14,728 nucleotides of DNA from Chthonomonadales bacterium (GTDB lineage Bacteria > Armatimonadota > Chthonomonadetes > Chthonomonadales > Chthonomonadaceae), in NCBI GenBank assembly GCA_038217285.1, contig JBBQPO010000157.1, positions 1-14,728 of the forward strand, in the 5' to 3' direction. This document shows positions 296-14,728 of the stretch, piece by piece (position 1 is the first letter of the stretch; each line of letters starts with the position of its first letter). The notes under the pieces are model-generated. The model was not told the DNA's origin. It saw only the letters and a program-made list of their open reading frames with translations, and made no database searches. The position numbers and the translations under genes are program-made.

Positions 296-312
296 AGGGT
301 TCTCCTCTGTCC

Positions 313-341
313 ATTATACGAAATAAACGAAAGGAACGCAA
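313..341 (-). promoter_or_regulatory. Sigma70-type promoter TTGCGT-N17-TATAAT for the 95..295 gene
   Basis: Minus-strand TTGCGT at 341-336, a 17-bp spacer, and TATAAT at 318-313, just upstream of the RBS and ATG. Confidence 0.6.
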
Positions 342-588
342 GGGGCAAAGATATATTATTTTACTCGCTCGGTATTTTAGTAAGGGGAGACCGATGCAGA
401 AGCAAACGCGGAAAATTGCTCTTCTGCCTGAAGATGACCGTTCTTTTGACCCATTCAACGCCTTAGTTCGGCAGGAATACTAGACATTGACGTTTAGATA
501 AAAGGACAGCAGTCCTGAGCCGTTTGTGGCTCTCTTCTGCTGTCCATCGGGTAAAGTTTCCTAACGACCAAGAAAGGAACTTGCCCCG

Positions 589-1131
589 ATGCATTCTAAC
601 ATATTTTCGACCCTCATCGACTTTCGACACAAACTCTACGCCTGTTTCGTCAAAGCAGGCGATGTCTTGATGAACACCGTTGATGCGCTCCTGAGCCATA
701 CCGACGCACAATCGCTCGTCGAACTCTCCCTCTCACCCGCCTTTGAGAGGCGATGGAGCAGTCTCTATGACGCTTTCGACAACGCCAACATCGACCGGGA
801 GGCCCTGCGCAAACTCTTCATGAATTCCCTGCCCAAGACCGCCTTAGGACAAAGACGCGTCTTCGGAGTGGACGCCTCCTCCATTCCTAGACCGCTGTCT
901 AAGACGGCACGCGACCGCACCTATGTGCATGCGTCTAACCTGCCCGAGGGAACCAAGCCCGTCACCCCCGGATGGCAGTTCTCAACCATCGCTCTCTTAC
1001 CCGAGAAGCCCAGCAGTTGGACCGCACCGGTGGACAGCCTGCGCATTCCCAGTGACAAAACCCAAGGGGAGGTCGCACACCAACAACTCAAAGCCCTCGC
1101 TCCCTTGCTTAACGAGAGCGATCTGCTCCTA
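589..1131 (+). pseudogene. 3'-truncated IS701-like/DDE_5-type transposase
   Basis: AAAGGA RBS before ATG 589. Motifs FRHKLYACF, ELSLSPAFERRWSSLYDA, GVDASSIPRP (first catalytic Asp) and PGWQFS...SSWTAPVD. Transposase-like sequence stops at ESDLLL (~1131), about where the second catalytic Asp is expected; the rest of ORF 589..1377 is read-through into foreign DNA. Confidence 0.8.
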
Positions 1132-1160
1132 GAAGCGTGGCCGAAAAATCGCCTTCCAAA

Positions 1161-1175
1161 CAATACCTTCGCCAA
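1161..1175. repeat. Terminal inverted repeat (downstream end of the IS)
   Basis: CAATACCTTCGCCAA is the exact reverse complement of 2697-2711. Confidence 0.92.
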
Positions 1176-1240
1176 TCCTGACGCAATATCATGCGCCCTG
1201 TGTCTCGATTCCGATAGGCAGCGCGGTCTTACACCCCGAA

Positions 1241-2609
1241 TTAGGCCGCCCTTTTCAGTTCGGCGACCGCTGCGGAGCGTTTATGGATGCAACCGAGCCG
1301 ACTCGCCTCCTCCAAAAGACGCGCAAGTAATGCCATCCGGCCGATCTGGAAGCATTTTTAACAGCGATTCGAGATAGTGACGACCCCGATAGAAGCTTTT
1401 GAGGTCCACTATCCCCGCTCCAGGCGTAAAGCGGCGAAAGTCCTCCAGAAGATAGGTCGTCAGGTTCACCAGAAAGAACGACAGACCGATCCCATTGGCA
1501 ACAGAGGCCTTTTTCACTCCCATGAAGTCCTCCAGACCAAAGTGCTGCTTGGCGTCCCGGAACGTAAACTCGATCTGAAAACGCAATCGGTAGTAGTCGA
1601 GCAAGCATTCTGCCGACAAACAGAGATCGCTGCTAAACAAAACGATGTGGCCCACACGTCTGCTTTCGACATGGGTTTTGACGACAATCACCACGTTGAG
1701 ACGACAGGCGAACTCCTTGTGTTAGCAAGACACCTGATACATCTGGGTGCAATATCCGTCCTGGGTCTCCTCCGAACATAGCAGATGAGCGGGCAAGTGC
1801 GCATAGTCGATTTTGTCGCCATATTTCAGACGAGGATGCAAGGCCTTTTGCGCCTCGGTAGGTTCTAGCCACAGCGCGGCGTTGTAGCGCATTTTGGAAA
1901 TGATGTGCAGACCCAACTGCCGCACCATCTGGGTGGCCGGATGATTGCCGAAGTGACCGTCGAGAACAAAATAGACGAGTTTGATCTTGTCTTTGAGCCG
2001 CTCTTTCACCTTTTGTCCCTGGGCAAGAATGCGCGTGAGTTCGGGGTTTAGGATGACGTCGGCTTTGTTCTTGTTCTTGCTGCCCTTGGGGCGTCCGCGT
2101 GGTCGGGTCGCTTCGGTCTTCTTGACAGGCTTTTTGCGCGCTTGTTTTCGGCTCTTGGCCGCCTGCTTTTCCTCCTCGCTGCGTACGACTTGCTCGGTAG
2201 CGAGGGAGTAGGCTTGACGCTTTCCGACATGAATGAGAGCCATCGAGAAGCAAGAGATGCCTGGCACGGCTTTGTCGAACAAGGACGAGAAGAGGCGGTC
2301 GAGGCCGAAGGTACATTTTCCGGATTTTGTGATGACGCTTTCATCTCCTGCGAGGAGATAGACGCCCTTTGGGTCCCAGCAAAACTTCTCGAAGAAGCTC
2401 CATTGGATGGCTTCCCAGTCGATCTTGGTATGGAAGAAGCGATGCACGGTGCGATAGCTGGCTCCTTCTTTTGTCCATCGGGAGATGCCCAACTGGGTGA
2501 TGCGTCCTGTCATGGCGAGCATGGCCACGATGATAGAATGCAGTTGCCGACAGGATGTTTTGGACAAAACGGGCGAGAGCATGAGCAGAAGGGGTAAAAT
2601 ATTGGGCAT
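1241..2609 (-). pseudogene. IS4-like DDE transposase disrupted by an in-frame stop (1722-1724) and a probable frameshift near 1320
   Basis: ORFs 1722..2609 and 1281..1694 are in the same frame, split by one TAA (QVSC*HKEFACRLNVVIV). DDE motifs LAGDES, VLDGHFG and YRLRFQIEFTFRDAKQHFG are present. An alternative frame near 1320 gives RLLEEASRLGCIHKRSAAVAELKRAA*, ending at 1241, which looks like the family C-terminus. Confidence 0.85.
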
Positions 2610-2696
2610 GGGTTTTCGACTTTCGATAGTTGTTTTGTTGGCGCTTACAACTTCGATCCGAAAGCCCTATATTCATGCATGATCCGCTATTCTGTT

Positions 2697-2711
2697 TTGG
2701 CGAAGGTATTG
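2697..2711. repeat. Terminal inverted repeat (upstream end of the IS)
   Basis: TTGGCGAAGGTATTG is the exact reverse complement of 1161-1175. Confidence 0.92.
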
Positions 2712-2739
2712 ATTATACTACGATTTTTTACGGTGTCAA
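2712..2739 (-). promoter_or_regulatory. Consensus sigma70 promoter TTGACA-N16-TATAAT abutting the IS end
   Basis: Minus-strand TTGACA at 2739-2734 and TATAAT at 2717-2712, with a 16-bp spacer. Confidence 0.65.
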
Positions 2740-2856
2740 GGGTGTGGGGAGGGCAACGTTTCATACGGTTCTATTTTCTCGCAGGAGAAAATACTGCACC
2801 ATTAGAAACAACGGAGACGACGTAGAGAGAGGTACCTCCCCGACGGGGTCACTATA

Positions 2857-3462
2857 CTATTCAGCAAGGCGTCTCCCCCGCGCTACAAACGACGCCCAAT
2901 AGTCTTGCCCAAGCGCGACCAGTTGCTCCAGACTAAAGGGCTTACCATCGCTGCGACTGGCGCTTATGCTGCTGCAACGCATAGAGACCGTGCAGAACCG
3001 ATCATTTATCTTCTCGCCGTCCTGGTAGCCAGTAAGTTGCAAGGCGGCCCTATCCTCGCTGCGTACAAGTGTCGCATCGGTCACATTTAGCGGATCGGTC
3101 GCCAACGAAGCCTCGAATTCATTCCATCCGAGGGATTGCTTGCACCCTTTCCCCCAGTATTCGGCAACCAGACGTCTACTTTCCTCGTCGTCTATGCCCT
3201 CCATTACCTTGAACTCTCCCGGCCACAAGACGGAGATAGTCGATTCGACCGACGTGACTGCGTCCAGGTGGATCAGAAATCGGACATCCTTCCCATCTTC
3301 CATCAAATGAGAGACTTCCATTTCGAGACGGACGGATCGACTCAAGAGATCGGAGGTACACGCTAAGAGTGTCCCATCGTGCAGGCAATCCCACAGAGAA
3401 TGGACATCGCTGCTTGGCGGCAAACGAGTCCAGTACAGATCAGGCGACTGCGGTTCATCCAT
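2857..3462 (-). CDS. Hypothetical protein (~201 aa)
   Basis: Open frame with globular, acidic composition. AGGAGAGG RBS precedes ATG 3462, preferred over the GTG at 3486. No family recognised with confidence. Confidence 0.7.
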   Translation of the reverse strand: MDEPQSPDLYWTRLPPSSDVHSLWDCLHDGTLLACTSDLLSRSVRLEMEVSHLMEDGKDVRFLIHLDAVTSVESTISVLWPGEFKVMEGIDDEESRRLVAEYWGKGCKQSLGWNEFEASLATDPLNVTDATLVRSEDRAALQLTGYQDGEKINDRFCTVSMRCSSISASRSDGKPFSLEQLVALGQDYWASFVARGRRLAE

Positions 3463-3871
3463 AACGGGTCTTTCCTCTCCTGTCACTTCGTGTCATCGGG
3501 CTGATTTCGGACAACTTTTGATAACCCCGCAGGGTGATCACGCTCTGAACCATCGGACATTTTTGGACATCGCCTTCGGTCGTATCTAGTCCGTATCATT
3601 CGATTCTGACAGTGGATTAGCCGAAAGTCGTCACATTCTGCCATAAAATGGCCTAACCCGTCTGATATCGCCCTGCCGTTCCGCGTCACCGCGACTGCCG
3701 TAACATCCAACATAACTCAGGAAGTGTTGGAAGAAGCGCGGAGTGCTTTGCAATAGAACCGTGTTCACTTTCCCGGTCTCTATGCAGTGTTAAAGGATGG
3801 AAGCCACTCCTATTGAAGGTTCTCCGCAGGGCGGCTGAGTATCTCTGTTGCAGTCGCCATCCTTATGCTGA

Positions 3872-3901
3872 TTGACACACGATTCTTAATTACGGCATAA
3901 T
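3872..3901 (+). promoter_or_regulatory. Sigma70-type promoter TTGACA-N18-CATAAT for the two-gene nucleotidyltransferase unit
   Basis: TTGACA at 3872-3877 and CATAAT at 3896-3901, in AT-rich context ~90 bp upstream of the inferred start. Confidence 0.55.
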
Positions 3902-3990
3902 ATGGTTTGAGAACTTGGCCTAGCAATACATATGAGACCAAACCTCTCCGCTTTCTGGATGATGCCTACAATGACCTCAGGAGTCGCAAT

Positions 3991-4221
3991 TTGAACGACG
4001 AGGCAGAAAAACGCCACTCGCTGACCAAAGAACAGCAGGCACAACTCGACCGCGCTCTTTCCGGATTTGGCGCACAGGGCGCCAACGGATACGACCTGTC
4101 GCAGTTTCGAGAAAATCTGCGTCGAACTCCGACAGAGCGGCTAGAGCGTTTGCAAGCTGCGGTCAAATTTTTTGCTGAGGTAAAACGAACCCGTGGAAAC
4201 CGACTTCCAAAAATCGATTGA
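3991..4221 (+). CDS. Small helical protein (76 aa), partner of the downstream nucleotidyltransferase
   Basis: AGGAG RBS 7 nt before TTG 3991. Contains the GYDLSQFRENLRRTPTERLERLQ motif (xDxxxxRxNLxxTPxERL type), which I recognise from small genes upstream of such NTases. Overlaps the next gene by 29 nt. Confidence 0.7.
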   Translation: MNDEAEKRHSLTKEQQAQLDRALSGFGAQGANGYDLSQFRENLRRTPTERLERLQAAVKFFAEVKRTRGNRLPKID

Positions 4222-4687
4222 GTTGATGGTCGCGAGCGGAGTCCGGTTCGTTATTATCGGTGGGGTGGCGATGCGTTTGCAGGGCAGTTCTCACGTCACG
4301 GACGACATAGATTTCAGCTACTCCCGAGATCCGGAGGGTTTGCCGGGCCTCGTAGAGGCATTAATCCACTATCATGTTCGCTTGCGGGACTTCCCGGCGG
4401 ACCTACCTTTCTTCTTCGATCTGCGTACTCTCAAAAATACACAAAACCTTACCTTGGTGACCGATGTCGGTGACATAGACCTCCTCGCCGAACCTCCCGG
4501 CGTCGATAGCTTTGAGGGACTATGGGAAAGAGCGAACGAGATGGATGTTTTCGGAATTAAGGTCCGTGTCGCCTCCCTCGACGATCTCATCGCCATGAAA
4601 CGCGCCGCAGGACGCCCAAAAGATAAGCAACATTTACTTGAACTTCAAGATCTTCAGCAGTTCGTACACGACGAAAAAACCACTTAG
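4193..4687 (+). CDS. Pol-beta superfamily nucleotidyltransferase (164 aa)
   Basis: Motifs FVIIGGVAM...G.SHVTDDIDF (GG and DxD), GDIDLL (third Asp), and C-terminal VASLDDLIAMKRAAGRPKD. Confidence 0.85.
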   Translation: METDFQKSIELMVASGVRFVIIGGVAMRLQGSSHVTDDIDFSYSRDPEGLPGLVEALIHYHVRLRDFPADLPFFFDLRTLKNTQNLTLVTDVGDIDLLAEPPGVDSFEGLWERANEMDVFGIKVRVASLDDLIAMKRAAGRPKDKQHLLELQDLQQFVHDEKTT

Positions 4688-4689
4688 TA

Positions 4690-4713
4690 CCGCTCCCCGT
4701 GATAGGGGAGCGG
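4690..4713. terminator. GC-rich hairpin between convergent genes (possible terminator or REP-like palindrome)
   Basis: CCGCTCCCC-GTGATA-GGGGAGCGG forms a perfect 9-bp stem 2 nt after the NTase stop. There is no clear U-tract. Confidence 0.45.
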
Positions 4714-4748
4714 AATTGTCAATGACTCAATTTGTTACAATCGTCACC

Positions 4749-5549
4749 CTATTGCGCGGAGATGTCGTCGACCTGGACGATGTGGTTCATGGCTTGATAG
4801 GTGTCGTCGCCGAGGCGTTCGCGAGTGGTCTCCTGGCCTTTTTGGGAGAGGATGCGGTAGGTGACGACACGGTAGCCGACGGCGCCGGGGTTGCGGAGGT
4901 AGGCGCTGCCGGCGTGGGTGTCGGATCGGTAGGCGACGCGTGTCAGGTTCTGCGGCGTGACTGTCTCCAGAATGTCGGAGGTGATCTGCGCCGACTGAGG
5001 AGGCTTTTTTGCGCCGTAGAGGCGAATGTCCAGCATATCGCCGCGCGACTCGGTGTGGATGCGCAGCGGCCAGGGATAGGGATTGCGGAAGCGCAGATCG
5101 ACGGTGTACTGCGCGACGGCCGCATCCCGGCCCGGCGGCACATAGTGGGGTGCGAAGACGTGCGGGTGCCGTTCGAGTATTGGCAGGCCCGCCAAGAGCG
5201 CCGCGTTGTAGAGAGTCGTCGAGGTCTGGCAGACCCCGCCGCCGTAGGCTTTGATGAGCTCGCCGTCGTAACTGACCGGCGCTTTCACGTAGCCCGTATC
5301 CTGCGCCCAGGAGCGCACGATTTTATTGAACGAAAAGACAGCGCCCGGCGGAATGACTCTGCCGTCCAGAAACTCTGCCGCCCGCTGCGCATTGTGGCGT
5401 TGACTGGCGGTGCGGCCTTTCAGACTGGTCGCATAGCCCGCCATCTCGACCTCCGGGGGCGGAGCGGAGGAGAGGCGGAAAAACAGTCCGCCTCCCACCG
5501 CCAGCAGCGCCACTACCACCCCCGCCTCCAACCAGGGCAAGCCCTTCAT
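4749..5549 (-). CDS. VanW family protein with N-terminal membrane anchor and C-terminal G5-like domain (266 aa)
   Basis: Motifs RHNAQRAA..LDGRVIPPGAVFSFN, YGGGVCQTSTTLYNAALLAGL, ERHPH...YVPPGRDAAV and DLRFRN. The C-terminal GAVGYRVVTYR...DTYQAMNHIVQV is G5-like. AAGGAG RBS; starts 15 nt after the A2M stop. Confidence 0.92.
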   Translation of the reverse strand: MKGLPWLEAGVVVALLAVGGGLFFRLSSAPPPEVEMAGYATSLKGRTASQRHNAQRAAEFLDGRVIPPGAVFSFNKIVRSWAQDTGYVKAPVSYDGELIKAYGGGVCQTSTTLYNAALLAGLPILERHPHVFAPHYVPPGRDAAVAQYTVDLRFRNPYPWPLRIHTESRGDMLDIRLYGAKKPPQSAQITSDILETVTPQNLTRVAYRSDTHAGSAYLRNPGAVGYRVVTYRILSQKGQETTRERLGDDTYQAMNHIVQVDDISAQ

Positions 5550-5564
5550 CTCGATGCTCCTTCG

Positions 5565-8500
5565 CTACTTGATCTCGACACGGGTTTCGGCGGTTTCGGC
5601 ACGGGTCTCCGGCGTGTACATGCCCTGCACCAGCGTCGGCAGCGCGTGATAGCTGCCGGGGGTCTGGGCGCGCAGATTGTACTCGATGACGTGTTTGCCC
5701 TTCGTGATCGTCTTCGCGAAGAAGGCGATATGATCATCGCGCACGTCCACGCCCTGCCACCAGTAGCCCCATTCGACCACCTCGCTGGCATCGCCGCGCT
5801 CGTTGACCTCGCAGCCGGACGGGAACGGGTCTTCCACGAGGACATAGGCCATATCGCGGGGCGAGTCTATCGTCAGGCGCACCCGGATGCGGTCGCCCTG
5901 CGCCAGTTGATTGTTGGTCGGCTCCGTCTGCAACGACCACGAATCGCTCCCAACCTTCTGCGGTTTCAGGCGCAGATACTCGCGTTTCACCGTGAGCGTC
6001 TCGCCTTTGATCGGGGGCGGCGAAAAGGCGGGAATATCTTCGGTGGCGAGGGTCTGCTTCCACTCCACCGAGTAGAAGACGGGAATGGCGCCGCCGGTGC
6101 GTTCCAGGGTGACATCGTTCTTATCGGGACGGAGTTCCGAAGCCGGAACATGCAGCGTCAACTGCGGCTGTTTCATCAGGTCGGGGGTCAGCGTGTAGGT
6201 CTGCCGCACGACGCCGTTGAGCTTGATCGTCACCTGCCCGCCGGACGTGAAGTCCGACTTCGACTTCAGATAGTCGCAGAAAGCGGCCAGAGCCCAGGCG
6301 GTATCGCGGGTGCTGCCCCAGTAGGTGCCGGTGCGATGCAGCATCATCCAGCGCAGCATCGCGCCTATGCGCGGCTCCTGCGAATTGACGGCGAGCAGTG
6401 CGCGCAGCGCCATCGCGGTCATCTCGCGGTCGTCCCAGTCCCAGGAGTAGAGACCGGTGCTGTCCCGCCAGTGCAGCATTCCGTCGGTCCAGACGGCCTC
6501 ACGGTTCATGTTTGCCAGAGCGGCCGACGTGTCGAGGTTGATGAGTTTTGCCGTCAGAACGAGGTAGGCATAGCCTGCGCCGTGCATACGCCTGCCAACG
6601 AGACGGTCGTACTCCGACCGTGCCGTGGCGTTGTCGCCGTTCAGGGCGAGCGCATAGAGCAGGAACGCCGCCGTATCCGGGGCCGTCTTCGGGTCCCGAG
6701 CCATTTTCGCGGCGATAGCTCGCCCTTTCGTCAGCACCTTGTCCGACACCTTGTAGCCCTCGGCCCGCGCGGTCGCCAGCCCGTAGAGGACATAGGCCGT
6801 CATCCAGGGATCGTCGGCGTCGTGCTCCCACCAACCCCACCCGCCTGTCTCCGCATGCTGGAAACGCGTGAGGCGATTCAGTCCAGCGTGGACCATACGC
6901 GGCAGTTGCTCCTGGTGCTTCGTATCCGCCATCGCGTGCAGGGTCAGGGCGCGCTGCACCAACAGGTCGGGCAAGAAGCGGCTCATCGTCTGTTCGGTAC
7001 AGCCGTACGGGAAACCGATCAGGTAGTCCGTCGCGCCGACCAACGAACCGGCGATGGAGGGCGTGATATGCACGGTCAGCCGACTAAGCTCCGGCACGGC
7101 CTTCGGGTCGAGGCGGATCACCTCCGTCTCGGGGTTCTTGTCGGTCACCTCACCCGCGAAGGCCGTGATGACCTCGCGGCCATGCGGGCGAATCGGCAGG
7201 CTCGTCTCGACGCCATCGGTGAACTGTACGCCGTTGGTGCGCGGGGTAAACGCTGTCACCTTCAGCTTCGCTGCCCCGAAGCCGTCCGCCGTGACGTTCC
7301 AGACGACCTCCCCGATCTTGCCGGGTTCCAGGGTCAGGGACTGCACGGCAGCGCTGTTGATCGTCAGGTTTTCGGTGGTCAAATGAACCTGCGCGGTCTG
7401 CGCGACGCCGGTATCGTTGTGTACCAGGGCGACCACGCGGGAGAGATCGTGCTGGGTCAGGCTGCGCGGCGTCTGCAGGCGCACCAGGAACTCTTTCGAA
7501 ACAAGCACTTGCTGCGTGGTGCGTCCCAGGCGGGTATCGAGCGTGTGTGCGGTCGCCGTCGCGCGCCAGGTCGTCAGGTTGTCCGGCAGGGCGAACGAGA
7601 CTGTCGCCAACCCATGTTCATCGGTCTCCAGGGTCGGGTTCCAGTAGGCGGTGTCCGGGAACTTCTTCCGGGCCGCAATCTGCGGCTCGGCCTTGTCCGC
7701 ATCCCCGAGATACTGGATCGCAAACGAATACTCCGTTGAGACGCGGTTGTAGCGGTTTGGGAAGAAACTGTCCCGCAACGCCTTCGGATCGTCCTTACGC
7801 AGCGCGTAGATCGACTCGTCCACGACGCCGAATGACAGTTCTGCCGGGACGGCGTGCCCCTGAAGATCGGTCGTCTGCACGGTATAGCGAATCTTATCCC
7901 CCGGCGCATAGCGCGCCAATGTCAACTTAGCGCTGCCTCCCGCCGTGCCGCCTGCTGCTTGATGCTCGGCACTGGCCGTATCCCGATCTGCGGTGATCTT
8001 GACGTTGATCTGCTGTCCAGGAGTGGCGACGCGCAGGGCGGTTTGCGAGGTGGCGTAGTGCTTCTGCCGCACATAGCAGGCGGCGAGAACGACGTTCGGG
8101 CCGTAGTTGGGGGGTAGCGGGACGTGGACGATGGTGCTGTGCTGCTTCAGCACGACCGACTGGGTGGCGTAGACGCGGTTGCCCTCGACCGTCAGCAGCA
8201 CGGTCTGCCCGATGCGACTGGCATTGATGAGGACGCGCGCCGTCTCGCCGGGGTTGTAGTGGCGCTTATCGGTCAGCAGCGAGAGATCGGCGTACTCGGT
8301 GTTGAGGTCGCCGCCCTTCTCGTCCGCCACCCAGAGATAGGAGGTTCCTATGATTTTGTGGCGTCCGCTGTCGAAGGCGCGGGCCTTTATATAGAGCTCT
8401 CCGGAGCGCGGTGCGGTGACGGACACGACCGCATGTCCATCCGGGCCGGTGATCGCATGCAGGGTTCCGACCGCCGTGTAGTGATAGGCGAACTTGCCCT

Positions 8501-10529
8501 CCTCGTCGTTCTTCACCCGCTTCCACTCATGGAAGCCTGTTTCCAGCTCGATCGCGACGTTCGGGACAGGCTTGCCGTCGTGATCCATCGCTGTGAGATT
8601 GACATTGGTCGCCTCACCCGGCGCGGCCACATAGCCGTCTGGTTTCAGGGTGAGTCGGAAATCGCCCGCGACGACGTTCGCCGTGCCATCCGCCGAAACT
8701 TCGCGGTTCTCCCCCTCCGTCACGGTCGCATTGACGGTATAGATATCGGCCTGCGAGGACTCGGAGTTGCTGTCGCCCTTCGCGACGAACTGAATGACCG
8801 CCCTGCCGTTCTCATCCAGCACGGAAGCGCCGTCCGCTTTGACTTCGCCGTAGTAGCTCTCCGCGCCGCCATCGAAGCCCGCTTCATCGGGACCGGACGA
8901 ACTATCGGTTTCGTCGGCGTTGTCGTCGAGTGGTGTGGCGTAGTCCGCTGAGCTATAGACGCTGTACTTCACCTTCGCCCCAACCACGGGCGCGCCGAAG
9001 TAGTACTGCGCGGAGACGGTCATACGGACAGTTTCACCTTTACGGTAGCGCTTCTTGTCCGGCGTGACGCTGACGGAGAACTCTGGCTTCTGGTAGGAGG
9101 CGATGACGATCTGATGCGTATGCTCCTCACCCCTCACGGTCGTAATCAGGGTATAGACCCCGGTGGCGGCCTCTGGATCGAGAGCGACCTTGCCGTTGAA
9201 GGAGCCATAGCGGTTGGTGGTCAGTTTGGTCAGCAGAATGCGTTCGCTGTCTTTGTCTCGCATCTCGACCGTGACTGGCTCGCCTGCGGGCACGGCATAC
9301 CGCTGGGTCGGCTCGACGGCGTCCATATCCCGAATGCGCCGTACGATCCCCTTGAAGGCGATCTGCTGTCCGGGGCGGTAGATCGGCCGGTCGGTGTAGG
9401 CATGAACCGCGAAGTTCCCCGCGTCCTCATTGCGGAAATAGTCCCGCGTGATGATGGCCTCGTCGTCGCCCCGCACCACCAGCGTCGTGATTCTGGCGGC
9501 ATCGGCCGTGTCGGAGCCGTCCCCGCCCTCGTCCCCGCCGTCCGCACTGGCAGCATGGCGCGGCGCAGTGCGAGGCATCGTGAGCGAGGCGAGGCCCACT
9601 GCGTCGGTGCTCGACTCGGCCACAACCTTGCCGTTACGATAGGCGCGCACCGTGCTGTTCGGCAGCGGCGCACCGCTCTGCATATCGACCGCATAGGCCA
9701 GGACACTGTTCTGCGCCCGCTTCACGATGAGCGCCGTATCCGTCACCAGGATCCAGGAACAGACCGACTTGCCAGCATGTTTAAGGTCGAGCAGGTAGAG
9801 TCCGGTCGGCAGTTGCTCGAAGTTCAGCTTCTGATAGAAGAAGCCTTCCTTGTCACCCTGCGTAATGGCGATATCGCGCTCCTGAACGATCTTCGGCGCC
9901 TGCCCGACTTTCGGGTGCAGCAAGCCGTCCGGCAGATTAGGCGCCGGATCGTATGAGCGTCCGACCGAGTCGAGCTTCTGCTCGTTCTCCGGGTTTTGCA
10001 GCAGCGTGGAGAGGCGTGTGTGAAAAAGGCGCAGATGAACGTTGTCCTGCTCCCCCTTCTTTTTGGTATCGACGTAGCCGCTGACACCGAGGTTGGCTTT
10101 CTCCCTGGTGCCGAAAATCCGTTGATGCTCCTTGAGTGCAAGCTCCGGTTTCGAGCGGGCAAGGGTCATTTCGAGCGGGGTCGTCTGTCCCTCCTGCACG
10201 GAGACGTAGAGGTTCTGCACGTCGTGCGAGTCGGAGTTGGCATAGACATGGTAGTCGCCCGCCGGAAGGTGGGTAATGGCGAACGTGCCATCGTCGTTGC
10301 TGACGGCGAAGCGGTGTCTGCGGACGTCTCCCGAGGAGACGATCGGATAGAAGTTGATCTCGGCGCCGGCCAGAGGCTGCCGGTTCTCGGCAAGGAGCAC
10401 ATGCCCTCGCACCACCCCGACAGGAATCTCGTTGGAGAAGGCGAATCGCATGGCGACCCCGATGCAGACGACAGCCAGCAGCAGCGCCGCATGCCGGGGC
10501 CAGAGCAGAGAGCGGAGCGTGGAGGTCAT
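5565..10529 (-). CDS. Bacterial alpha-2-macroglobulin family protein (1654 aa) with an N-terminal carboxypeptidase-regulatory-like domain and intact thioester motif
   Basis: Motifs YTDRPIYRPGQ (MG2), YQKPEFSV, YYFGAPV, DKRHYNPGETA, GVVDESIYAL, RKKFPDTAYW, LPDNLTTWR, FPYGCTEQTMS (CxEQ at 6990-7001), WGSTRDTAWAL and VEDPFPSGCE. The true start is ATG 10529, which overlaps the upstream stop (ATGA), has a GGAAGGAG RBS and is followed by a hydrophobic signal/anchor. Confidence 0.95.
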   Translation of the reverse strand: MTSTLRSLLWPRHAALLLAVVCIGVAMRFAFSNEIPVGVVRGHVLLAENRQPLAGAEINFYPIVSSGDVRRHRFAVSNDDGTFAITHLPAGDYHVYANSDSHDVQNLYVSVQEGQTTPLEMTLARSKPELALKEHQRIFGTREKANLGVSGYVDTKKKGEQDNVHLRLFHTRLSTLLQNPENEQKLDSVGRSYDPAPNLPDGLLHPKVGQAPKIVQERDIAITQGDKEGFFYQKLNFEQLPTGLYLLDLKHAGKSVCSWILVTDTALIVKRAQNSVLAYAVDMQSGAPLPNSTVRAYRNGKVVAESSTDAVGLASLTMPRTAPRHAASADGGDEGGDGSDTADAARITTLVVRGDDEAIITRDYFRNEDAGNFAVHAYTDRPIYRPGQQIAFKGIVRRIRDMDAVEPTQRYAVPAGEPVTVEMRDKDSERILLTKLTTNRYGSFNGKVALDPEAATGVYTLITTVRGEEHTHQIVIASYQKPEFSVSVTPDKKRYRKGETVRMTVSAQYYFGAPVVGAKVKYSVYSSADYATPLDDNADETDSSSGPDEAGFDGGAESYYGEVKADGASVLDENGRAVIQFVAKGDSNSESSQADIYTVNATVTEGENREVSADGTANVVAGDFRLTLKPDGYVAAPGEATNVNLTAMDHDGKPVPNVAIELETGFHEWKRVKNDEEGKFAYHYTAVGTLHAITGPDGHAVVSVTAPRSGELYIKARAFDSGRHKIIGTSYLWVADEKGGDLNTEYADLSLLTDKRHYNPGETARVLINASRIGQTVLLTVEGNRVYATQSVVLKQHSTIVHVPLPPNYGPNVVLAACYVRQKHYATSQTALRVATPGQQINVKITADRDTASAEHQAAGGTAGGSAKLTLARYAPGDKIRYTVQTTDLQGHAVPAELSFGVVDESIYALRKDDPKALRDSFFPNRYNRVSTEYSFAIQYLGDADKAEPQIAARKKFPDTAYWNPTLETDEHGLATVSFALPDNLTTWRATATAHTLDTRLGRTTQQVLVSKEFLVRLQTPRSLTQHDLSRVVALVHNDTGVAQTAQVHLTTENLTINSAAVQSLTLEPGKIGEVVWNVTADGFGAAKLKVTAFTPRTNGVQFTDGVETSLPIRPHGREVITAFAGEVTDKNPETEVIRLDPKAVPELSRLTVHITPSIAGSLVGATDYLIGFPYGCTEQTMSRFLPDLLVQRALTLHAMADTKHQEQLPRMVHAGLNRLTRFQHAETGGWGWWEHDADDPWMTAYVLYGLATARAEGYKVSDKVLTKGRAIAAKMARDPKTAPDTAAFLLYALALNGDNATARSEYDRLVGRRMHGAGYAYLVLTAKLINLDTSAALANMNREAVWTDGMLHWRDSTGLYSWDWDDREMTAMALRALLAVNSQEPRIGAMLRWMMLHRTGTYWGSTRDTAWALAAFCDYLKSKSDFTSGGQVTIKLNGVVRQTYTLTPDLMKQPQLTLHVPASELRPDKNDVTLERTGGAIPVFYSVEWKQTLATEDIPAFSPPPIKGETLTVKREYLRLKPQKVGSDSWSLQTEPTNNQLAQGDRIRVRLTIDSPRDMAYVLVEDPFPSGCEVNERGDASEVVEWGYWWQGVDVRDDHIAFFAKTITKGKHVIEYNLRAQTPGSYHALPTLVQGMYTPETRAETAETRVEIK

Positions 10530-12316
10530 CGCACCGCTCCTTCCGTCGGAAGAACGCTGGTTCCCTGCCGTTTGCTGCGCATCCAACCGGCGAACCGTCC
10601 GCTGTAGTCTGCGAGGAGAATCAGGACTGCCAGAACCGCGATGAGCTTGAGCGTCAGCGTCTCTTTGTCGACGCGTGTCAGCTGCGTGAGCGGCAGAACG
10701 TGGTGCGTCCACTGTGCGAGCGCCAGACAGACTCCGAGCGCGAACAACGCCGGCAGCAGCCGCAGAGCGGGAGAAAGGGTCTCTTTCGGACTTGCTGCGG
10801 ACGTTGGCGCTGTGGACGGCAGCAGCGTGATCGCGAGCGCCAGACCGAGCATCAGGGCCAGGGCGCATTTCGTGCCCCAGAGGATGAGAACGAGCGCGGG
10901 AATCGCCAGCACCAAAGCGGCGACGACGCACAGGCGTGCGATACGAGGTCCGGGAGTGGTGGTCGCGGTAAAGGGACGCAGCAGGAAGCCGGTCAGGAGG
11001 GCAGGCAGCACCGCTCCGAGGAGCAGGCCGAACGCGGCATACTGATCGGTCAGGCTGACGCCGCGCAGCTCGCTCTCGAACCGGGAGGTGAAGACACGGT
11101 AGAGGAGCAGCGCCACGCCCATCAGCCCGAGCCGCAGCAGATTTGCGGCGACGACAGGCGTATCGGCCGACAGCGAATCGCTCTCTCCGGTTTCCGGCTC
11201 CTGTGCGAAGACGACGGAGAGGCTGACCGCCAGCCAGGCCCCGATCAACAGCAGTCCGACTCCGAAGCCCGCCAGCCTCTGAAACGCGACCATGATTCCG
11301 GCGAGCAGCAGCAGCGCCGCGACCGCATTGTTCTGCCAGGCGATCACGCCAGCGTTGCCAGGGGTCTCGCGCTCCAGCCGTCGCGCCGAGGCCGCCACCC
11401 ACCAGGCCGCTGCGCCTCCAAACAGTCCGAGCCCCATCACCTCAAAGAGGTGCAGGGCGAGTTTATGATTCTCGGTATCCACAACGCGCGCCGCCAGCAG
11501 TTTGCCCAGCGCGAGCAGCACGAGGGAGGCCAATGCCAGTCGCCAGAGCCGCAGAGCCGTATTGCGGGAGAGCGCGTCGGGCAGAATAGTCTCGCCGCTG
11601 CGCGCCAGCCCGGCCATGCCCGGCATCTGTCCAAACACCAGCGTCAGTCCGGCGTTCAGTACACCGCTCAGGAGCAGCGCGAAGGGCACTCCCGCCGCGA
11701 AGACCATGCCCAGCACACTCCAGGAAACCGTAGAGGTCGCCGTCAGATCGACGGTACCGCGCATCTCTCCGAGCGCCGCCACCCCGCAGGTCAGGATCGC
11801 GAAGCCGGTACCAGTAACCACCGACAGGACGCCGGGGCGCTCTGTCGTGTCCTCGCGCTGCAGCATTCCGATCAGGACGAGAAAGGTGACGCAGAACCAG
11901 CCGATGGCCGCACCCAGCAGCGTATCGAGCAGAGAGGCGCGCAGCATCAGCAAGGGCGTCACGGCGGCGACCAGTCCCATCCCACACGGCGCAGCGACCG
12001 TCGCCCCGATGCGACGGCGACGAAGTTCGCCGCCCTCCCCGGCCAGGAGCGGAACCAGGGCTGCCAGCAGCGCGCAGACAGCGCCGAGCAGGAAGCCCTT
12101 CCCAAGCCCCTGCCCCTCCGCGAAAAACTTACCGTGCGACGGCAGGGTCGCGATAAACACCAGCAGAGGCAAAACGACTGCGGCGATCAGATAGGGTCGG
12201 GGCAGTTCCTTTGCGCCGTTCCCCGTTTCCGTATGCCGTGCGCGGGCTGCGATCAGACCCAGCAGCCAGCTCACCCAACCCATCGCGAACACGCCCCACA
12301 AGAGACTGCGTTCCAT
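10526..12316 (-). CDS. Polytopic membrane protein (596 aa); possible non-catalytic homolog of membrane pyrophosphatases
   Basis: Roughly 15-17 hydrophobic segments by eye. AAGGAAGG RBS before ATG 12316. The stop overlaps the A2M start. Several helices resemble HppA helices in the same order (see findings). The CDS is confident; the family call is tentative. Confidence 0.85.
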   Translation of the reverse strand: MERSLLWGVFAMGWVSWLLGLIAARARHTETGNGAKELPRPYLIAAVVLPLLVFIATLPSHGKFFAEGQGLGKGFLLGAVCALLAALVPLLAGEGGELRRRRIGATVAAPCGMGLVAAVTPLLMLRASLLDTLLGAAIGWFCVTFLVLIGMLQREDTTERPGVLSVVTGTGFAILTCGVAALGEMRGTVDLTATSTVSWSVLGMVFAAGVPFALLLSGVLNAGLTLVFGQMPGMAGLARSGETILPDALSRNTALRLWRLALASLVLLALGKLLAARVVDTENHKLALHLFEVMGLGLFGGAAAWWVAASARRLERETPGNAGVIAWQNNAVAALLLLAGIMVAFQRLAGFGVGLLLIGAWLAVSLSVVFAQEPETGESDSLSADTPVVAANLLRLGLMGVALLLYRVFTSRFESELRGVSLTDQYAAFGLLLGAVLPALLTGFLLRPFTATTTPGPRIARLCVVAALVLAIPALVLILWGTKCALALMLGLALAITLLPSTAPTSAASPKETLSPALRLLPALFALGVCLALAQWTHHVLPLTQLTRVDKETLTLKLIAVLAVLILLADYSGRFAGWMRSKRQGTSVLPTEGAVR

Positions 12317-12471
12317 TGTAGCCTTCCTTGCCCTCCAGGGCAAAAAACCGAGAGAATCCGAACAGGGAGAAGAGACGAATCGTAGGCCACCACCCTCCTT
12401 ACCGCAACAGGACGGCAAGCGGCTACAATTGGTAAGACGTCACAACAATCGGCATCGACTACAGGCCAATG

Positions 12472-12510
12472 TGTGAATTATTGCACACTCATCCTGTGAA
12501 TTATTGCATA
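12472..12510. promoter_or_regulatory. Tandem palindromic operator pair, Rex-like or CRP/FNR-like
   Basis: TGTGAATTATTGCA occurs at 12472-12485 and 12495-12508. Site 1, TGTGAA-TTAT-TGCACA, is one mismatch from TGTGAA-N4-TTCACA. Confidence 0.55.
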
Positions 12511-12863: not shown

Positions 12864-14728
12864 ATGACTAAAAGCTGTGCGATTCTCTTCCTCTTGTTCT
12901 CTCTCGTGCTGCCGACAACACTCGTCTGGGCTGTGCCTCCGCGTCATGCTGCCCCATCGAAGAAGGCTGTCGCTCCGAAACCGGTGCGTCTGGTCGTTAC
13001 GCCCACTTTGGTGCGGCTTGTCGGGCCGAAGTCGGCGCAGCGGCTGCTGGCGACGGCTCTCTTCGCAGATGGCTCCCAACGGGATGTGACCGATAGCGCT
13101 GCCTTTGCAAGCGCCGCGCCCAAAGTGGCGATGGTGACGAACGGCACTACCCTTCCGAAGGGGGACGGGACTACGGCGGTCGTGGTCAGGTGGGAGGGAT
13201 TGACAGCCCGTGTGGCGGTCTCCGCGACGGGAACGCAGCAGCCGGTCAGCTACTCGTTCGTGGACGATGTGGTGCCGGTGTTGTCGCGGCTGGGGTGCAG
13301 TCAGGGAACGTGTCATGGCGCGGCACAGGGCAAAGGCGGCTTCCGACTGAGCCTGCGCGGGTATGCGCCGGAGATCGACATCGTCTCGATCACGCGGCAA
13401 CTCGGAGGGCGCCGCATCAGCCGCGAAGCGCCCGAAAACAGTCTGCTGCTGCGCAAGCCATTGGCGGAGGTGCCGCATCGCGGCGGCAAGCGGCTGGATA
13501 AGGCCTCACGGGAGTACGCTGTGTTGCTGGGCTGGCTGAAAAACGGGACGCCTGGGCCGACCGGCAAAGAGGCGGCGCTGGCGAAACTGGAGATACTGCC
13601 CGGCGACCGACAGATGAAGCCACTGGAGAAGCAGCGACTGCTGGTGCGCGCGACGTTTGCAGACGGACGCACGGAAGACGTCACGGATCGTGCCCTCTAC
13701 AACAGCAACGATGTGGCGCTGGCGACGGTAGACGAAAGCGGACTCGTGACGATGCAGCGGGCCGGAGAGACGGCCGTCACGACAAAGTATATGGACAAGA
13801 TGGCCGTGGTGCGGGTGCTGTCGCCGTTCAACCAGAAGGTGGCGGAGACGGCCTTTACGGCTTCCAACAACTATATCGACCCGTTGGTCGATGCGAAGCT
13901 GAAGCAACTGCACATCGAACCTTCCGGCCTCTGCACCGACGAAGAGTTCCTGCGCCGCGCCTCTCTGGACGCGATCGGAACCCTGCCGACGATGGACGAG
14001 GCCCGTGCCTTCCTGGACTCGAAGGACGTTCGCAAGCGCGAGACGCTGGTGGAGGCCCTGCTGCAGCGGCCCGAATACGGGGAGATCTGGGCCTTGAAGT
14101 TTGGGGACTTGTTTGTTCTTCGGCGGGAGTATATGCATCGCAAGTACGCTATGTTGATGCAGCAATGGCTCGCGGAACAGTTTAATGCCGACCGCTCCTG
14201 GGACAAGATCGTGACCGACATTCTGACGGCCAGCGGCGATCTGGAGACGCACCAGGGCGGCTACTTCTTCGTCAGTCGCGCCCCGCAAAAGCCGGGACAG
14301 GGCTACTGGGTGCGCGCCTCGGAGCCGACCGCAGAGATGACCGCGCAGGTGTTTCTGGGCGCGCGCATCCAGTGCGCCAAGTGCCACAATCACCCGACCG
14401 AACGCTATACCCAGGACGACTACTACCACTATACAGCGCTCTGGCAGCAGTTGGTGGGCAAGGGCGAAAATGACGACGGTGTGCCGGAGAAACTGGCCTC
14501 GGAGGACAAGAACGACATTCGCCAACCGCGCACCAACGACGTCATGATCCCGCGCCCCCTCGACCGCTCCGATCTCGGATTCGGCAAAGACGAAGACAGG
14601 CGCATCAAGGCGGCGGCCTGGATCGTACGGCAGGACGACTTCGCGCGCAACATCGTCAACCGCTACTGGGCGCGCTGTTTCGGCATGGGTATCGTCGAGC
14701 CGGTCGATGACATCCGCAGCACGAACCC
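12864..14728 (+). CDS. DUF1549/DUF1553 (planctomycete cytochrome-c-like, PSCyt2/PSD1) secreted protein with Ig-like domains; 3' end beyond the window
   Basis: Open from ATG 12864 to the window end. It has a signal peptide (MTKSCAILFLLFSLVLPTTLVWA) and motifs SFVDDVVPVLSRLGCSQGTCHGAAQGKGGFRLSL, NNYIDPLVDAKL, DEEFLRRASLDAIGTLPT, VFLGARIQCAKCHNHP and FARNIVNRYWARCFGMGIVEPVDD. Confidence 0.93.
   Translation, partial: MTKSCAILFLLFSLVLPTTLVWAVPPRHAAPSKKAVAPKPVRLVVTPTLVRLVGPKSAQRLLATALFADGSQRDVTDSAAFASAAPKVAMVTNGTTLPKGDGTTAVVVRWEGLTARVAVSATGTQQPVSYSFVDDVVPVLSRLGCSQGTCHGAAQGKGGFRLSLRGYAPEIDIVSITRQLGGRRISREAPENSLLLRKPLAEVPHRGGKRLDKASREYAVLLGWLKNGTPGPTGKEAALAKLEILPGDRQMKPLEKQRLLVRATFADGRTEDVTDRALYNSNDVALATVDESGLVTMQRAGETAVTTKYMDKMAVVRVLSPFNQKVAETAFTASNNYIDPLVDAKLKQLHIEPSGLCTDEEFLRRASLDAIGTLPTMDEARAFLDSKDVRKRETLVEALLQRPEYGEIWALKFGDLFVLRREYMHRKYAMLMQQWLAEQFNADRSWDKIVTDILTASGDLETHQGGYFFVSRAPQKPGQGYWVRASEPTAEMTAQVFLGARIQCAKCHNHPTERYTQDDYYHYTALWQQLVGKGENDDGVPEKLASEDKNDIRQPRTNDVMIPRPLDRSDLGFGKDEDRRIKAAAWIVRQDDFARNIVNRYWARCFGMGIVEPVDDIRSTN

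Follow-up and report, generated by a model that had tools for sequence, protein, structure and literature searches.

The membrane protein encoded at one end of a three-gene operon in the window (the whole 14,728-nucleotide stretch of Chthonomonadales DNA analysed here) belongs to an unnamed, Armatimonadota-wide family, the descent of which from the membrane pyrophosphatases (M-PPase, HppA) is well supported. We propose, with a probability of about 55%, that this dead M-PPase acts as a non-catalytic membrane subunit of a periplasmic defence-and-repair module, together with a macroglobulin and a VanW-domain protein.

The membrane-protein family and its M-PPase fold

12322..12329, minus strand: Shine-Dalgarno-like AAGGAAGG of the membrane-protein gene, 5 nt before the ATG, read from the sequence
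10526..12316, minus strand: membrane-protein gene, 596 aa, 17 helices, M-PPase fold without catalytic residues (ORF and translation)
10589..10663, minus strand: 17th transmembrane helix, which holds LKLIAV and lies past the point where the solved 16-helix M-PPases stop

The open reading frame starts with an ATG at 12316 and its stop ends at 10526 (596 aa); the N-terminal MERSLLW is kept among homologues. A promoter and terminator scan yielded nothing above shuffled expectation. Homologues comprise 33 sequences at 34-87% identity and 256 cluster representatives, and the family is present in 145 of the 401 Armatimonadota genomes sampled for the survey, the locus search with alignment A1 reaching closer relatives only. 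A search with an 86-sequence family profile returned 3 proteins, apparently swamped by hydrophobic words. Pfam and NCBIfam scans assigned no family to the membrane protein or its relatives, and the best scores in an ESM Atlas look-up (0.79) were to unrelated hypothetical clusters.

The first-pass annotation, made from the letters alone, had seen in this protein a helical resemblance to HppA, and the seven peptides that it quoted are all present where it placed them. When a 137-member family profile was compared with a 30-member HppA profile using hhalign, the local score was 57.8-61.0 (P = 2-5 × 10−6, 419-473 columns) and the global alignment extended over 558 columns (P = 2 × 10−8), compared to scores of 19-22 for reversed profiles, 21-37 for ten block-shuffled HppA profiles, and 21.6 (local) and 5.5 (global) for the unrelated 14-TM family MurJ. 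The resemblance is thus greater than expected by chance. With conservation set at 70% or more, the alignment covers 90 conserved positions of the family, and at 24 of these HppA has the same residue conserved to that level, in most cases Gly or Pro; under shifted registers, the same count is 3-8. The profile-profile match is collinear, as expected under common ancestry with M-PPase, and stands clear of the negative controls. Six of the seven helix pairings that had been suggested were also made by hhalign; the seventh, LKLIAV with IKLMAV, was not, LKLIAV being in the extra helix 17. The LKLIAV lysine (K551) was considered as the ion-gate residue K16.50 and rejected, given its place in helix 17; K16.50 falls in a gap.

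The check that had been suggested against Pfam H_PPase gave a divided result, whereby the deep profile-profile comparison was collinear but Pfam, the PDB profile search and shallow hhalign were blind to the relationship. The membrane protein did not match PF03030 at E ≤ 0.01 and did not reach the gathering threshold of that model (29.7 bits); among 31 A1 members, the best E was 1.7, in one member, and none of 27 distant members matched at E ≤ 1. A six-frame scan of the genome with PF03030 found the true HppA only (contig C5), the family profile had 0 matches at E ≤ 10 among PDB sequences, hhalign of a shallow 31-member profile against one HppA sequence gave a probability of 0.5%, and BLASTP against the genome's own HppA was not significant. 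Significance versus HppA appeared only once the profiles were deeper.

The AF2 model of the membrane protein has a pLDDT of 79 and a pTM of 0.86, with six segments below 50. Models of two family members that are 24% identical to each other were compared with the PDB using Foldseek; these models were predicted without templates, by a network trained on M-PPase structures. They matched 36 and 35 PDB chains at E ≤ 0.001, all of them M-PPase among the matches listed, at 12-15% identity, and the next rows had E values of 0.09 and 0.05. The first-pass annotation had set beforehand that its M-PPase proposal would fall if neither profiles nor structures gave a significant collinear match to M-PPases, or if another transporter fold matched better; neither was the case among the matches listed. 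In the models, the 16 helices form two rings, with helices 5, 6, 11, 12, 15 and 16 in the inner ring, as in solved M-PPase structures. About 16 transmembrane helices had been anticipated and 17 were counted: the VIA alignments stop at model residues 553 and 533, opposite residue 766 of the 5gpj chain, and a matching extra helix is present in 28 of 30 Armatimonadota HppA. The K+R counts (12.9 inside, 5.1 outside) fit an N-out topology. We consider both the fold and the homology to M-PPase to be well supported.

Catalytic residues and the distribution of conservation

11834..11860, minus strand: cytoplasmic loop TM5-TM6, residues 153-161, QREDTTERP (hhalign alignments and residue map)
11165..11200, minus strand: cytoplasmic loop TM11-TM12, residues 373-384, which stands for a 43-residue HppA segment with D11.57
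10757..10822, minus strand: cytoplasmic loop TM15-TM16, residues 499-520, which stands for a 50-residue HppA segment

M-PPases couple the hydrolysis of PPi to H+/Na+ transport and form homodimers through helices 10, 13 and 15. Their hydrolytic centre includes D5.61, D5.65, E5.76, D5.77, D6.35, D6.39, D6.43, D11.57, D15.61, D16.31, D16.35, D16.39, K5.58, K15.64, K16.38 and an Asn of TM12 (PMC6882861; helix.offset numbers were assigned here from anchor residues in that paper, which prints N12.53, and it was the Asn of the GNTT motif that was mapped). In the family, 12 of these 16 residues fall in deletions and 4 at unconserved positions, and none is kept as a conserved residue. The TM5-TM6 loop replaces a 26-residue HppA segment that bears K5.58, D5.61, D5.65, E5.76 and D5.77, and the adjacent D6.35/6.39/6.43/6.50 stretch is deleted too; the segment missing at TM15-TM16 bears D15.61, K15.64, D16.31, D16.35, K16.38 and D16.39, and in the loop that remains there residues 501-513 have a pLDDT <50. 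Altogether, the cytoplasmic loops amount to ~91 residues in the family vs. ~208 in HppA.

The coupling funnel and ion gate (R5.50, D6.50, D11.50, K12.50, E6.53/6.57, S6.54, D/N16.46 and K16.50; the residue mapping left out S5.43 and position 6.57) are not retained either. D6.50 and K16.50 lie opposite gaps in the family alignment, and in the membrane protein R5.50 is replaced by L148, D11.50 by A371, E6.53 by T170, S6.54 by G171, K12.50 by R395 (Arg in ~37% of members) and N16.46 by R519, at a variable position. The mid-membrane parts of the inner-ring helices contain no charged residue conserved in at least 70% of the members.

The catalytic motifs DVGADLVGKVE, DNVGDNVGD, TEYYT/TEYFT, DAYGP/DTFGP and GDPFKDT do not occur in the membrane protein, in agreement with the first-pass annotation, and local variants are absent as well; the genome's own HppA (820 bits to PF03030) bears them. 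The membrane protein is also, as had been noted, the shorter of the two (596 aa vs. an 844-aa ORF). The suggestion of a pseudo-enzyme with its catalytic loops deleted holds, in that the catalytic and gating residues that were mapped have disappeared, for the most part via loop deletions. The cytoplasmic extensions of helices 5, 6, 11, 12, 15 and 16 have been lost, taking the hydrolytic centre, the funnel charges and the ion gate with them. Because all three are missing, PPi hydrolysis or ion pumping by the M-PPase mechanism is not to be expected and, judging by the sequences, loss of catalysis in the family is well supported.

12110..12148, minus strand: conserved periplasmic loop TM2-TM3, TLPxxPPF...G (mean conservation 0.61)
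11045..11080, minus strand: conserved periplasmic loop TM12-TM13, RFxxDLxGxxLTD, flanked by R407, R412 and D424
10664..10681, minus strand: conserved periplasmic loop TM16-TM17, LTRxxK (R548 in 92% and K551 in 72% of members)

The mean conservation of the cytoplasmic loops in the family is 0.16-0.32, the lowest in the protein, and that of the periplasmic loops is 0.23-0.79, with five of eight at 0.57 or above. HppA shows the opposite pattern (0.75 for 208 cytoplasmic residues, 0.30 for 90 periplasmic ones). By the predicted topology, the conserved residues E2/R3, R126, D131, R186, R407, R412, D424, K483, Q535/W536, R548 and K551 map to periplasmic loops and helix ends, including those of inner-ring helices 5, 6, 12, 15 and 16; that the charges cluster on the periplasmic side is inferred from the topology. 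Selective constraint has shifted to the periplasmic face of the protein, where the conserved charges could form a structural plug or a ligand site instead of a docking surface.

The operon with macroglobulin and VanW

10526..10529, minus strand: ATGA overlap of the membrane-protein stop and the macroglobulin start (junction sequence)
5565..10529, minus strand: type I alpha-2-macroglobulin, 1654 aa (Pfam domains and thioester)
10437..10490, minus strand: hydrophobic helix at the N terminus of the macroglobulin (signal peptide or membrane anchor), ahead of a conserved E-[TV]-P-x-G
6990..7001, minus strand: CTEQ thioester motif of the macroglobulin, residues 1177-1180
4749..5549, minus strand: VanW-domain protein, 266 aa, with an N-terminal hydrophobic helix, VanW and a partial G5
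5229..5231, minus strand: Cys107, the candidate catalytic residue of the VanW domain (GGGVCQ in the translation)

The overlap suggests that the membrane-protein and macroglobulin genes are translationally coupled. The macroglobulin consists of an N-terminal hydrophobic helix followed by CarboxypepD_reg-like, MG, bait-region, TED and bMG10 domains (bMG10, 1.7 × 10−30; A2M, 5 × 10−20; MG2, 7 × 10−20; A2M_BRD, 8 × 10−18; TED, 2 × 10−16). With its MG, bait-region, TED and bMG10 domains and CXEQ, the type I hallmark according to passages of PMC5764988, it is a type I macroglobulin. In an alignment of 29 homologues, E34 is at least 90% conserved and G38 and G42 are invariant; no lipobox-like Cys is conserved across the family alignment. 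The VanW domain is complete (PF04294, E = 6.5 × 10−44, profile positions 2-130 of 130; G5, 7 × 10−4), and VanW domains are described as L,D-transpeptidases in portions of PMC11348318. Such enzymes have a Cys-His-Asp catalytic triad, and Cys107 may be the counterpart of the essential Cys of C. difficile Ldt4/Ldt5.

At all 33 loci with enough flanking DNA, the macroglobulin gene is linked to the membrane-protein gene, and at 32 of these (14/14 and 18/19 in two locus sets), it follows directly; at the exceptional locus, the order is A2M-VanW-membrane protein. By coordinates, 58 more loci agree with the linkage. The VanW gene comes after the macroglobulin gene at 27 of the 29 loci with DNA beyond A2M (10/11 and 17/18). 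No pbpC (PBP1c) gene was found beside the macroglobulin gene, the next gene being that of the VanW-domain protein. An apparent fusion of the membrane protein with the macroglobulin in two relatives (frames of 2099 and 1510 aa) was discarded, these being separate abutting or overlapping ORFs.

The operon is phylum-wide and also encodes a macroglobulin and a wall cross-linking enzyme, so the membrane protein is probably their membrane partner, a role read from gene order only. Macroglobulins that contain bMG10 are present in 304 of 401 Armatimonadota genomes vs. 145 of 401 for the membrane-protein family, and neither the family nor VanW adjoins the macroglobulin in three cases from genomes without the family; thus, macroglobulins as such would have no need of the membrane protein. 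The macroglobulin and the VanW protein each have their own hydrophobic N-terminal helix, so that an extra anchor is not obviously required. A complex prediction for the membrane protein with macroglobulin residues 1-135 scored 0.11 against a mark of 0.32, a result that has no bearing on whether the two bind.

Possible roles and comparison with known systems

The first-pass annotation had left the choice between scaffold, channel and sensor open; of these, we prefer the role of a scaffold or partner to that of a channel. The membrane protein, which retains the two-ring bundle and 17th helix of Armatimonadota HppA, would dock, position or stabilise the macroglobulin at the inner membrane and probably do the same for the transpeptidase. 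The result would be a periplasmic module in which the attacking protease is trapped and the wall re-crosslinked, with parallels in the pairing of E. coli A2M with PBP1c and in the retention of MagD by MagB in Pseudomonas. A more specific version, tentative and in our view doubtful, is that the family is a second, non-enzymatic branch of M-PPases that arose from a 17-helix Armatimonadota HppA by trimming of the cytoplasmic funnel, the old ion-exit mouth having become a conserved basic receptor site. This periplasmic receptor might bind the membrane-tethered macroglobulin at its conserved E-T-P-x-G neck or, alternatively, a pyrophosphate-lipid (C55-PP or lipid II, for example), physically coupling protease trapping to VanW-catalysed 3-3 re-crosslinking in a three-part 'immune and repair' machine.

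The bundle might instead have been kept as a working conduit, i.e. an ion channel, passive or gated, or else a secondary transporter on the former ion path, co-regulated with its neighbours by chance. We find this unlikely: the models do show the 16-helix core in full, with its six inner-ring helices, conserved polar and charged residues lie where the old exit channel opened to the periplasm, and ~37% of the members have Arg at the K12.50-equivalent position, but the mapped ion-gate and funnel residues are all deleted or replaced by unconserved, mostly apolar ones, the mid-membrane stretches of helices 5, 6, 11, 12, 15 and 16 are devoid of charged residues shared by 70% or more of the members, and the tight, near-universal linkage to A2M and VanW is not explained by a housekeeping transporter. 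The basic residues on the periplasmic side (R126, R186, R407, R412, K483, R548, K551), with D131, D424, Y406, Y426, W140, W199, W480, Q535 and W536 on the same side, and an operon partner that, by parts of PMC11348318, acts on peptidoglycan would also suit a net-basic pocket that has newly become an active site, or a binding site, for an anionic molecule of the envelope, such as the pyrophosphate of undecaprenyl-PP or lipid II. Pyrophosphate would then be handled from the other membrane side, feeding or guiding the VanW transpeptidase in repair. This seems rather improbable, considering that Pfam and NCBIfam brought up no known motif for a phosphatase or for lipid II binding, that a metal could be bound by just two conserved acidic residues, and that the gene neighbourhood is the sole tie to lipid carriers.

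It is very unlikely that the resemblance reflects analogy or a modelling artefact, whereby AlphaFold forced an unrelated Gly/Ala/Leu-rich 17-helix protein into the nearest learned template. Two independent lines, template-free models of 24%-identical members and a structure-free profile alignment, agree; the controls (reversed, shuffled and MurJ) all came out negative; every helix is aligned in the same order, with the invariant Gly and Pro of the family on those of HppA; and the deletions coincide with cytoplasmic loops in the alignment. In favour of an artefact are the 12-15% identity to PDB chains, the failure of HMM-to-sequence searches, and the first model's pLDDT of 79, with six segments below 50. 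Homology to M-PPases might even suggest that the protein is still a pyrophosphatase with a reduced or relocated active site, which we regard as nearly out of the question with 0 of 16 hydrolytic-centre residues retained as conserved, cytoplasmic segments (~91 residues) in which conservation is at its lowest, and a complete HppA (820 bits) already present in the genome.

To our knowledge, M-PPases have been treated as a self-contained enzyme family, and no inactive or pseudoenzyme relative was found in literature searches on that topic. Compared to HppA, the membrane protein falls below the Pfam model (PF03030), is conserved on the periplasmic rather than the cytoplasmic side, and is encoded in a macroglobulin operon instead of standing as an energy-metabolism gene. 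According to passages of PMC5764988, PBP1c is the usual partner of type I A2M, with pbpC adjacent at many type I loci; the 'defence plus repair' idea for type I macroglobulin and a wall enzyme is taken from there too. As in the E. coli/Salmonella systems (ECAM/YfhM and Sa-A2M with PBP1c), the gene for a CXEQ macroglobulin here adjoins one for a peptidoglycan cross-linking enzyme; however, that enzyme is a VanW-type L,D-transpeptidase, and the macroglobulin, unlike ECAM and Sa-A2M, has a hydrophobic N-terminal helix and a CarboxypepD_reg-like domain. We know of no third gene in the enterobacterial A2M system comparable to the 17-helix dead pump. In Pseudomonas aeruginosa, MagB is required for retention of MagD at the inner membrane (passages of PMC5764988). 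Like MagB of the type II A2M Mag complex, the membrane protein is encoded in a macroglobulin operon, its partner role being proposed here from gene order; unlike it, MagB has one predicted TM helix and an unrelated sequence and fold, and MagD lacks the thioester. The iRhoms, in which a polytopic membrane enzyme fold without catalytic residues is reused for partner handling (parts of PMC6451368), and other membrane pseudoenzymes are a conceptual analogy only, with unrelated folds and organisms.

A widespread relative that has the bundle but lacks the hydrolytic centre and the ion gate would be a naturally occurring 'membrane core only' pump, from which one could learn what the M-PPase bundle does alone. 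Such relatives escape Pfam-type annotation and are visible via deep profiles or structure prediction only. The family would exemplify a bacterial polytopic pseudoenzyme, and with this operon VanW L,D-transpeptidases would join PBP1c under the 'A2M plus wall-repair enzyme' idea. For bacterial alpha-2-macroglobulin systems, the membrane organisation of which is poorly understood, the family would add a component.

A conserved and unnamed membrane protein family

The gene of the window protein is read from an ATG that follows a ribosome-binding site, and its product contains all the peptides quoted in the first-pass annotation, each where it had been placed. Leu (20%), Ala (15%) and Gly (10%) dominate the composition, and approximately 16–17 hydrophobic segments are present. 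A longer, TTG-started frame was rejected because homologues share the MERSLLW start (among 137 members, M1 is found in 94% and E2 in 80%).

Features of the window (coordinates, strand, description, basis)
589–1377, plus: DDE_5 transposase ORF (Pfam)
1722–2609, minus: DDE_5 transposase ORF (Pfam)
3907–4221: 104-aa ORF ahead of the AbiEii/DUF2204-like gene
4193–4687, plus: AbiEii/DUF2204-like nucleotidyltransferase (Pfam)
4638–7739, plus: antisense ORF, 1033 aa, opposite the macroglobulin gene
4749–5549, minus: VanW-domain protein
5565–10529, minus: alpha-2-macroglobulin (A2M)
10526–12316, minus: window protein, 596 aa, ATG at 12316, stop ending at 10526
5 nt 5' of this ATG, minus: ribosome-binding site AAGGAAGG (sequence reading)
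10700–12385, plus: antisense ORF, 561 aa, opposite the membrane-protein gene
12472–12485 and 12495–12508: 14-nt exact direct repeat TGTGAATTATTGCA, 23 nt start to start
12864–14726, plus: large PSCyt2 (DUF1549) and PSD1 (DUF1553) protein, divergent, running off the end (Pfam)

The window protein is a member of a real, conserved, unnamed family. A word-indexed protein search returned 33 relatives (identity 34–87%), the few named ones being entered as 'hypothetical protein' from Chthonomonadaceae, and when 1.84 billion cluster representatives were scanned exhaustively with phmmer, 256 matched at E ≤ 1e-3; 183 of these passed E ≤ 1e-10 and 117 passed E ≤ 1e-30. No Pfam or NCBIfam family was found for the window protein, for 31 close members or for 27 distant ones. 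Of the 401 Armatimonadota genomes sampled, 145 have a match to the 92-member family profile, mostly a single copy; among high-quality genomes the figure is 111 of 300, and among genera 95 of 207. When one genome per prokaryotic species was scanned by pattern, a search that picks up closer relatives only and says nothing on other phyla, 18 loci came up, and each bears the title of an Armatimonadota lineage (Chthonomonadaceae or Chthonomonadales, Capsulimonadales, Abditibacteriaceae, Armatimonadaceae).

Relationship to membrane-bound pyrophosphatases

An AlphaFold2 model, built without templates from a 31-sequence alignment (pLDDT 79.1, pTM 0.86), was compared with 350,542 PDB chains using Foldseek, with 36 matches at E ≤ 0.001. 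Among the matches listed, all those within this threshold are membrane-bound pyrophosphatases (M-PPases) from Thermotoga, Vigna and Pyrobaculum (E 3e-7 to 3.5e-5, TM 0.48–0.62), and the first match beyond them has E 0.09 and TM 0.11. VIA-align, a method independent of Foldseek, was run against 48,161 representative chains. The predicted fold points to the M-PPase likeness proposed in the first-pass annotation.

A normal HppA is encoded elsewhere in the genome, on a separate contig (PF03030, 820 bits). The PF03030 scan of the genome did not detect the window gene, BLASTP of the window protein against this HppA gave no significant match, hhalign of a 31-member family profile against the single HppA sequence reached a probability of 0.5%, and the family profile retrieved no PDB sequence at E ≤ 10. 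With deeper profiles, built from 137 family members of full length and from 30 HppA sequences of Armatimonadota genomes, the local hhalign score was 57.8 (P = 4.7e-6, 473 columns), or 61.0 (P = 1.8e-6) under another column rule, and the global alignment paired family positions 1–596 collinearly with HppA 33–820 (probability 94%, P = 2.1e-8, 558 columns). Controls were negative: reversed profiles scored 19.2 (HppA) and 21.6 (family), ten block-shuffled HppA profiles 21.1–36.7 (best P = 0.0023), and a MurJ profile of 25 members, likewise built from this phylum, scored 21.6 locally and 5.5 globally against the family, comparable to HppA versus MurJ (21.9 and 8.4). Six of the seven helix pairings suggested by the first reading were reproduced by hhalign; one was not. 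At 24 of the 90 aligned positions that are ≥70% conserved in the family, the same residue is ≥70% conserved in HppA (including G78, G135, G139, G297, G352, G434, P438, P473 and G491), compared to 3–8 after register shifts of 1–7, a control with some bias, since register 0 is the one for which the alignment had been optimised.

The hydrolytic centre, coupling funnel and ion gate of M-PPase, as listed in excerpts of PMC6882861, were placed on the family via the global alignment, with helix.offset labels that we assigned from the anchor residues of that review; the map lacks S5.43 and position 6.57. On this map, in which equivalences rest on a profile alignment at ~15% identity and may be offset locally by a few positions, e.g. 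around helix 16, 12 of the 16 hydrolytic-centre residues fall in family deletions (D5.61, D5.65, D6.35, D6.39, D6.43, D11.57, D15.61, K15.64, D16.31, D16.35, K16.38, D16.39) and the other four (K5.58, E5.76, D5.77 and the TM12 Asn) stand opposite unconserved positions, in line with the earlier claim that catalytic residues had been lost. D6.50 and K16.50 are opposite gaps, R5.50 is replaced by Leu, D11.50 by Ala, E6.53 by Thr or Ala and S6.54 by Gly; the counterpart of K12.50 is Arg in 37% of members, and that of N16.46 is variable. The deletions relative to HppA are located in cytoplasmic loops 5–6, 11–12, 13–14 and 15–16, and the cytoplasmic segments sum to ~91 residues in the window protein versus 208 in HppA.

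We assign a probability of about 0.9 to the reading that the M-PPase fold is present in the window protein, that its relation to M-PPases is one of remote homology, and that it is incapable of acting as a PPase or PPi-driven pump. An M-PPase likeness that is an artefact or an analogy has to be set beside both the negative single-sequence searches and the deep-profile scores with their controls, and appears improbable; a still-active PPase, which has the emptied hydrolytic centre against it, is hardly credible.

Solved M-PPases end at helix 16, whereas most of the Armatimonadota HppA proteins compared, like the window-protein family, have a helix 17: in 28 of 30 HppA loci (L001–L030), an extra hydrophobic helix ending in SKRG follows helix 16. 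In the global alignment, family helix 17 is paired with this helix, with a conserved Arg in common (R574 and R803, respectively). This would fit a possible origin of the family by duplication of a 17-helix HppA. In five Armatimonadota genomes (G009:C45, G025:C30, G039:C5, G052:C2 and G053:C55, as genome:contig), the H_PPase match is split (profile 1–298 and ~296–645), the parts lying ~750 nt apart inside one open frame of 987–1125 aa, which suggests a large insertion between the halves of these HppA proteins.

Linkage with macroglobulin and VanW genes

The window-protein gene and the gene after it share an ATGA, in which the stop codon of the first overlaps the start codon of the second. This second gene encodes a 1654-aa bacterial alpha-2-macroglobulin with bMG10, A2M, MG2, bait-region and TED domains and a CTEQ thioester, i.e. 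type I in the nomenclature given in the portion of PMC5764988 consulted. At its N-terminus, a hydrophobic helix is followed by the conserved motif E-[TV]-P-x-G and by a CarboxypepD_reg-like domain. Fifteen bases beyond it starts the VanW gene, whose 266-aa product carries a hydrophobic helix at its N-terminus, a complete VanW domain (6.5e-44) and a partial G5 domain; according to excerpts of PMC11348318 (2024), VanW domains are L,D-transpeptidases for which a Cys is essential.

Among the 18 loci of the pattern-based scan, A2M is the next gene downstream of the membrane-protein gene in all 14 with DNA there; 11 of them continue past A2M, and in 10 of these VanW follows. Twenty further places were picked from the unresolved part of the 401-genome survey, one of which ends at a contig edge; A2M is next in 18 of the remaining 19, the other having the order A2M, VanW, membrane protein, and VanW is present in 17, one of the two lacking it ending ~0.8 kb past A2M. 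At locus L101 (G328:C18), with this permuted order, the linkage of the three genes survives rearrangement. By coordinates alone, with 150 of the 443 bMG10 matches used, a bMG10 match lies 4.3–5.2 kb downstream on the same strand at no fewer than 58 of 107 listed family places (at least 59 if G096, a genome whose contig has another macroglobulin too, is included).

bMG10 is more widely spread than the family (304 of 401 genomes). Three macroglobulins from family-less genomes adjoin neither a family gene nor VanW and differ within the first ~230 residues; therefore, the family accompanies one macroglobulin subtype. The genome of the window has a second bMG10 match on a different contig (G000:C302:4530–4931), away from its single family match.

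The repeat TGTGAATTATTGCA, for which chance expectation is none, lies upstream of the operon, in the intergenic region between the divergent genes, and is a possible operator; the loci of two close relatives (L031 and L051) have a single copy each. The PSCyt2/PSD1 gene is placed outside the module because it adjoins the family gene in close relatives only (L031, L033, L034). Positions 1–4700, with a GC content of 0.51–0.55 compared to 0.62–0.67 elsewhere, look like a mobile or toxin-antitoxin patch adjoining the operon. The antisense ORFs are probably not genes, given the high GC content.

Periplasmic conservation and candidate roles

The topology was taken as that of M-PPase, with the N-terminus outside, an orientation supported by the richer Lys+Arg content of inside loops (12.9 versus 5.1 for the outside ones) and by the basic nature of the C-terminal tail past helix 17. 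Under this assumption, mean conservation in the family is 0.61, 0.44, 0.23, 0.30, 0.68, 0.57, 0.79 and 0.60 in successive periplasmic loops and 0.16–0.32 in cytoplasmic segments, the opposite of the HppA pattern (0.75 inside, 0.30 outside); exit-channel residues of M-PPase are described in part of PMC6882861 as not highly conserved. The conserved polar residues (E2/R3, R126, D131, R186, R407, R412, D424, K483, Q535/W536, R548, K551) are all in periplasmic loops or periplasmic helix ends, including those of inner-ring helices 5, 6, 12, 15 and 16, and, judging from topology, would cluster in space. No charged residue in the membrane core is conserved in ≥70% of members.

Gene order suggests, at even odds or marginally better, that the window protein is a membrane subunit for the tethered macroglobulin, which it would dock or stabilise; it would probably do the same for the VanW transpeptidase. 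Together they would form a module in the periplasm that can 'trap the protease, re-crosslink the wall'. A channel or transporter left over from the pump would retain the predicted M-PPase fold, has to be reconciled with a core lacking conserved charges and with the gaps opposite D6.50 and K16.50, and seems unlikely; slightly less likely still is a new site facing the periplasm that would bind, or act catalytically on, an anionic molecule linked to a lipid, a reading that bears on the same conserved polar residues as docking.

In the literature searched on M-PPase pseudoenzymes and inactive transmembrane relatives, no such protein was described, and nothing was found on alpha-2-macroglobulin in Armatimonadota. 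Pfam H_PPase is not known to have clan partners. We rate the family as a branch of the M-PPase superfamily that is not catalytic and is found in a new functional context. Docking of the macroglobulin would parallel the Pseudomonas Mag complex, in which MagD relies on MagB, a membrane protein, and the proposed module would parallel the A2M–PBP1c pairing, both as described in sections of PMC5764988. Across the Armatimonadota loci examined, the pairing of a type I A2M with a VanW-type L,D-transpeptidase (window 4749–10529, minus strand) is conserved. Whereas Proteobacteria, according to the same sections, pair type I A2M with PBP1c, the wall enzyme here is a VanW-type L,D-transpeptidase, and the A2M–VanW pairing stretches the 'defence plus repair' idea to another wall enzyme.
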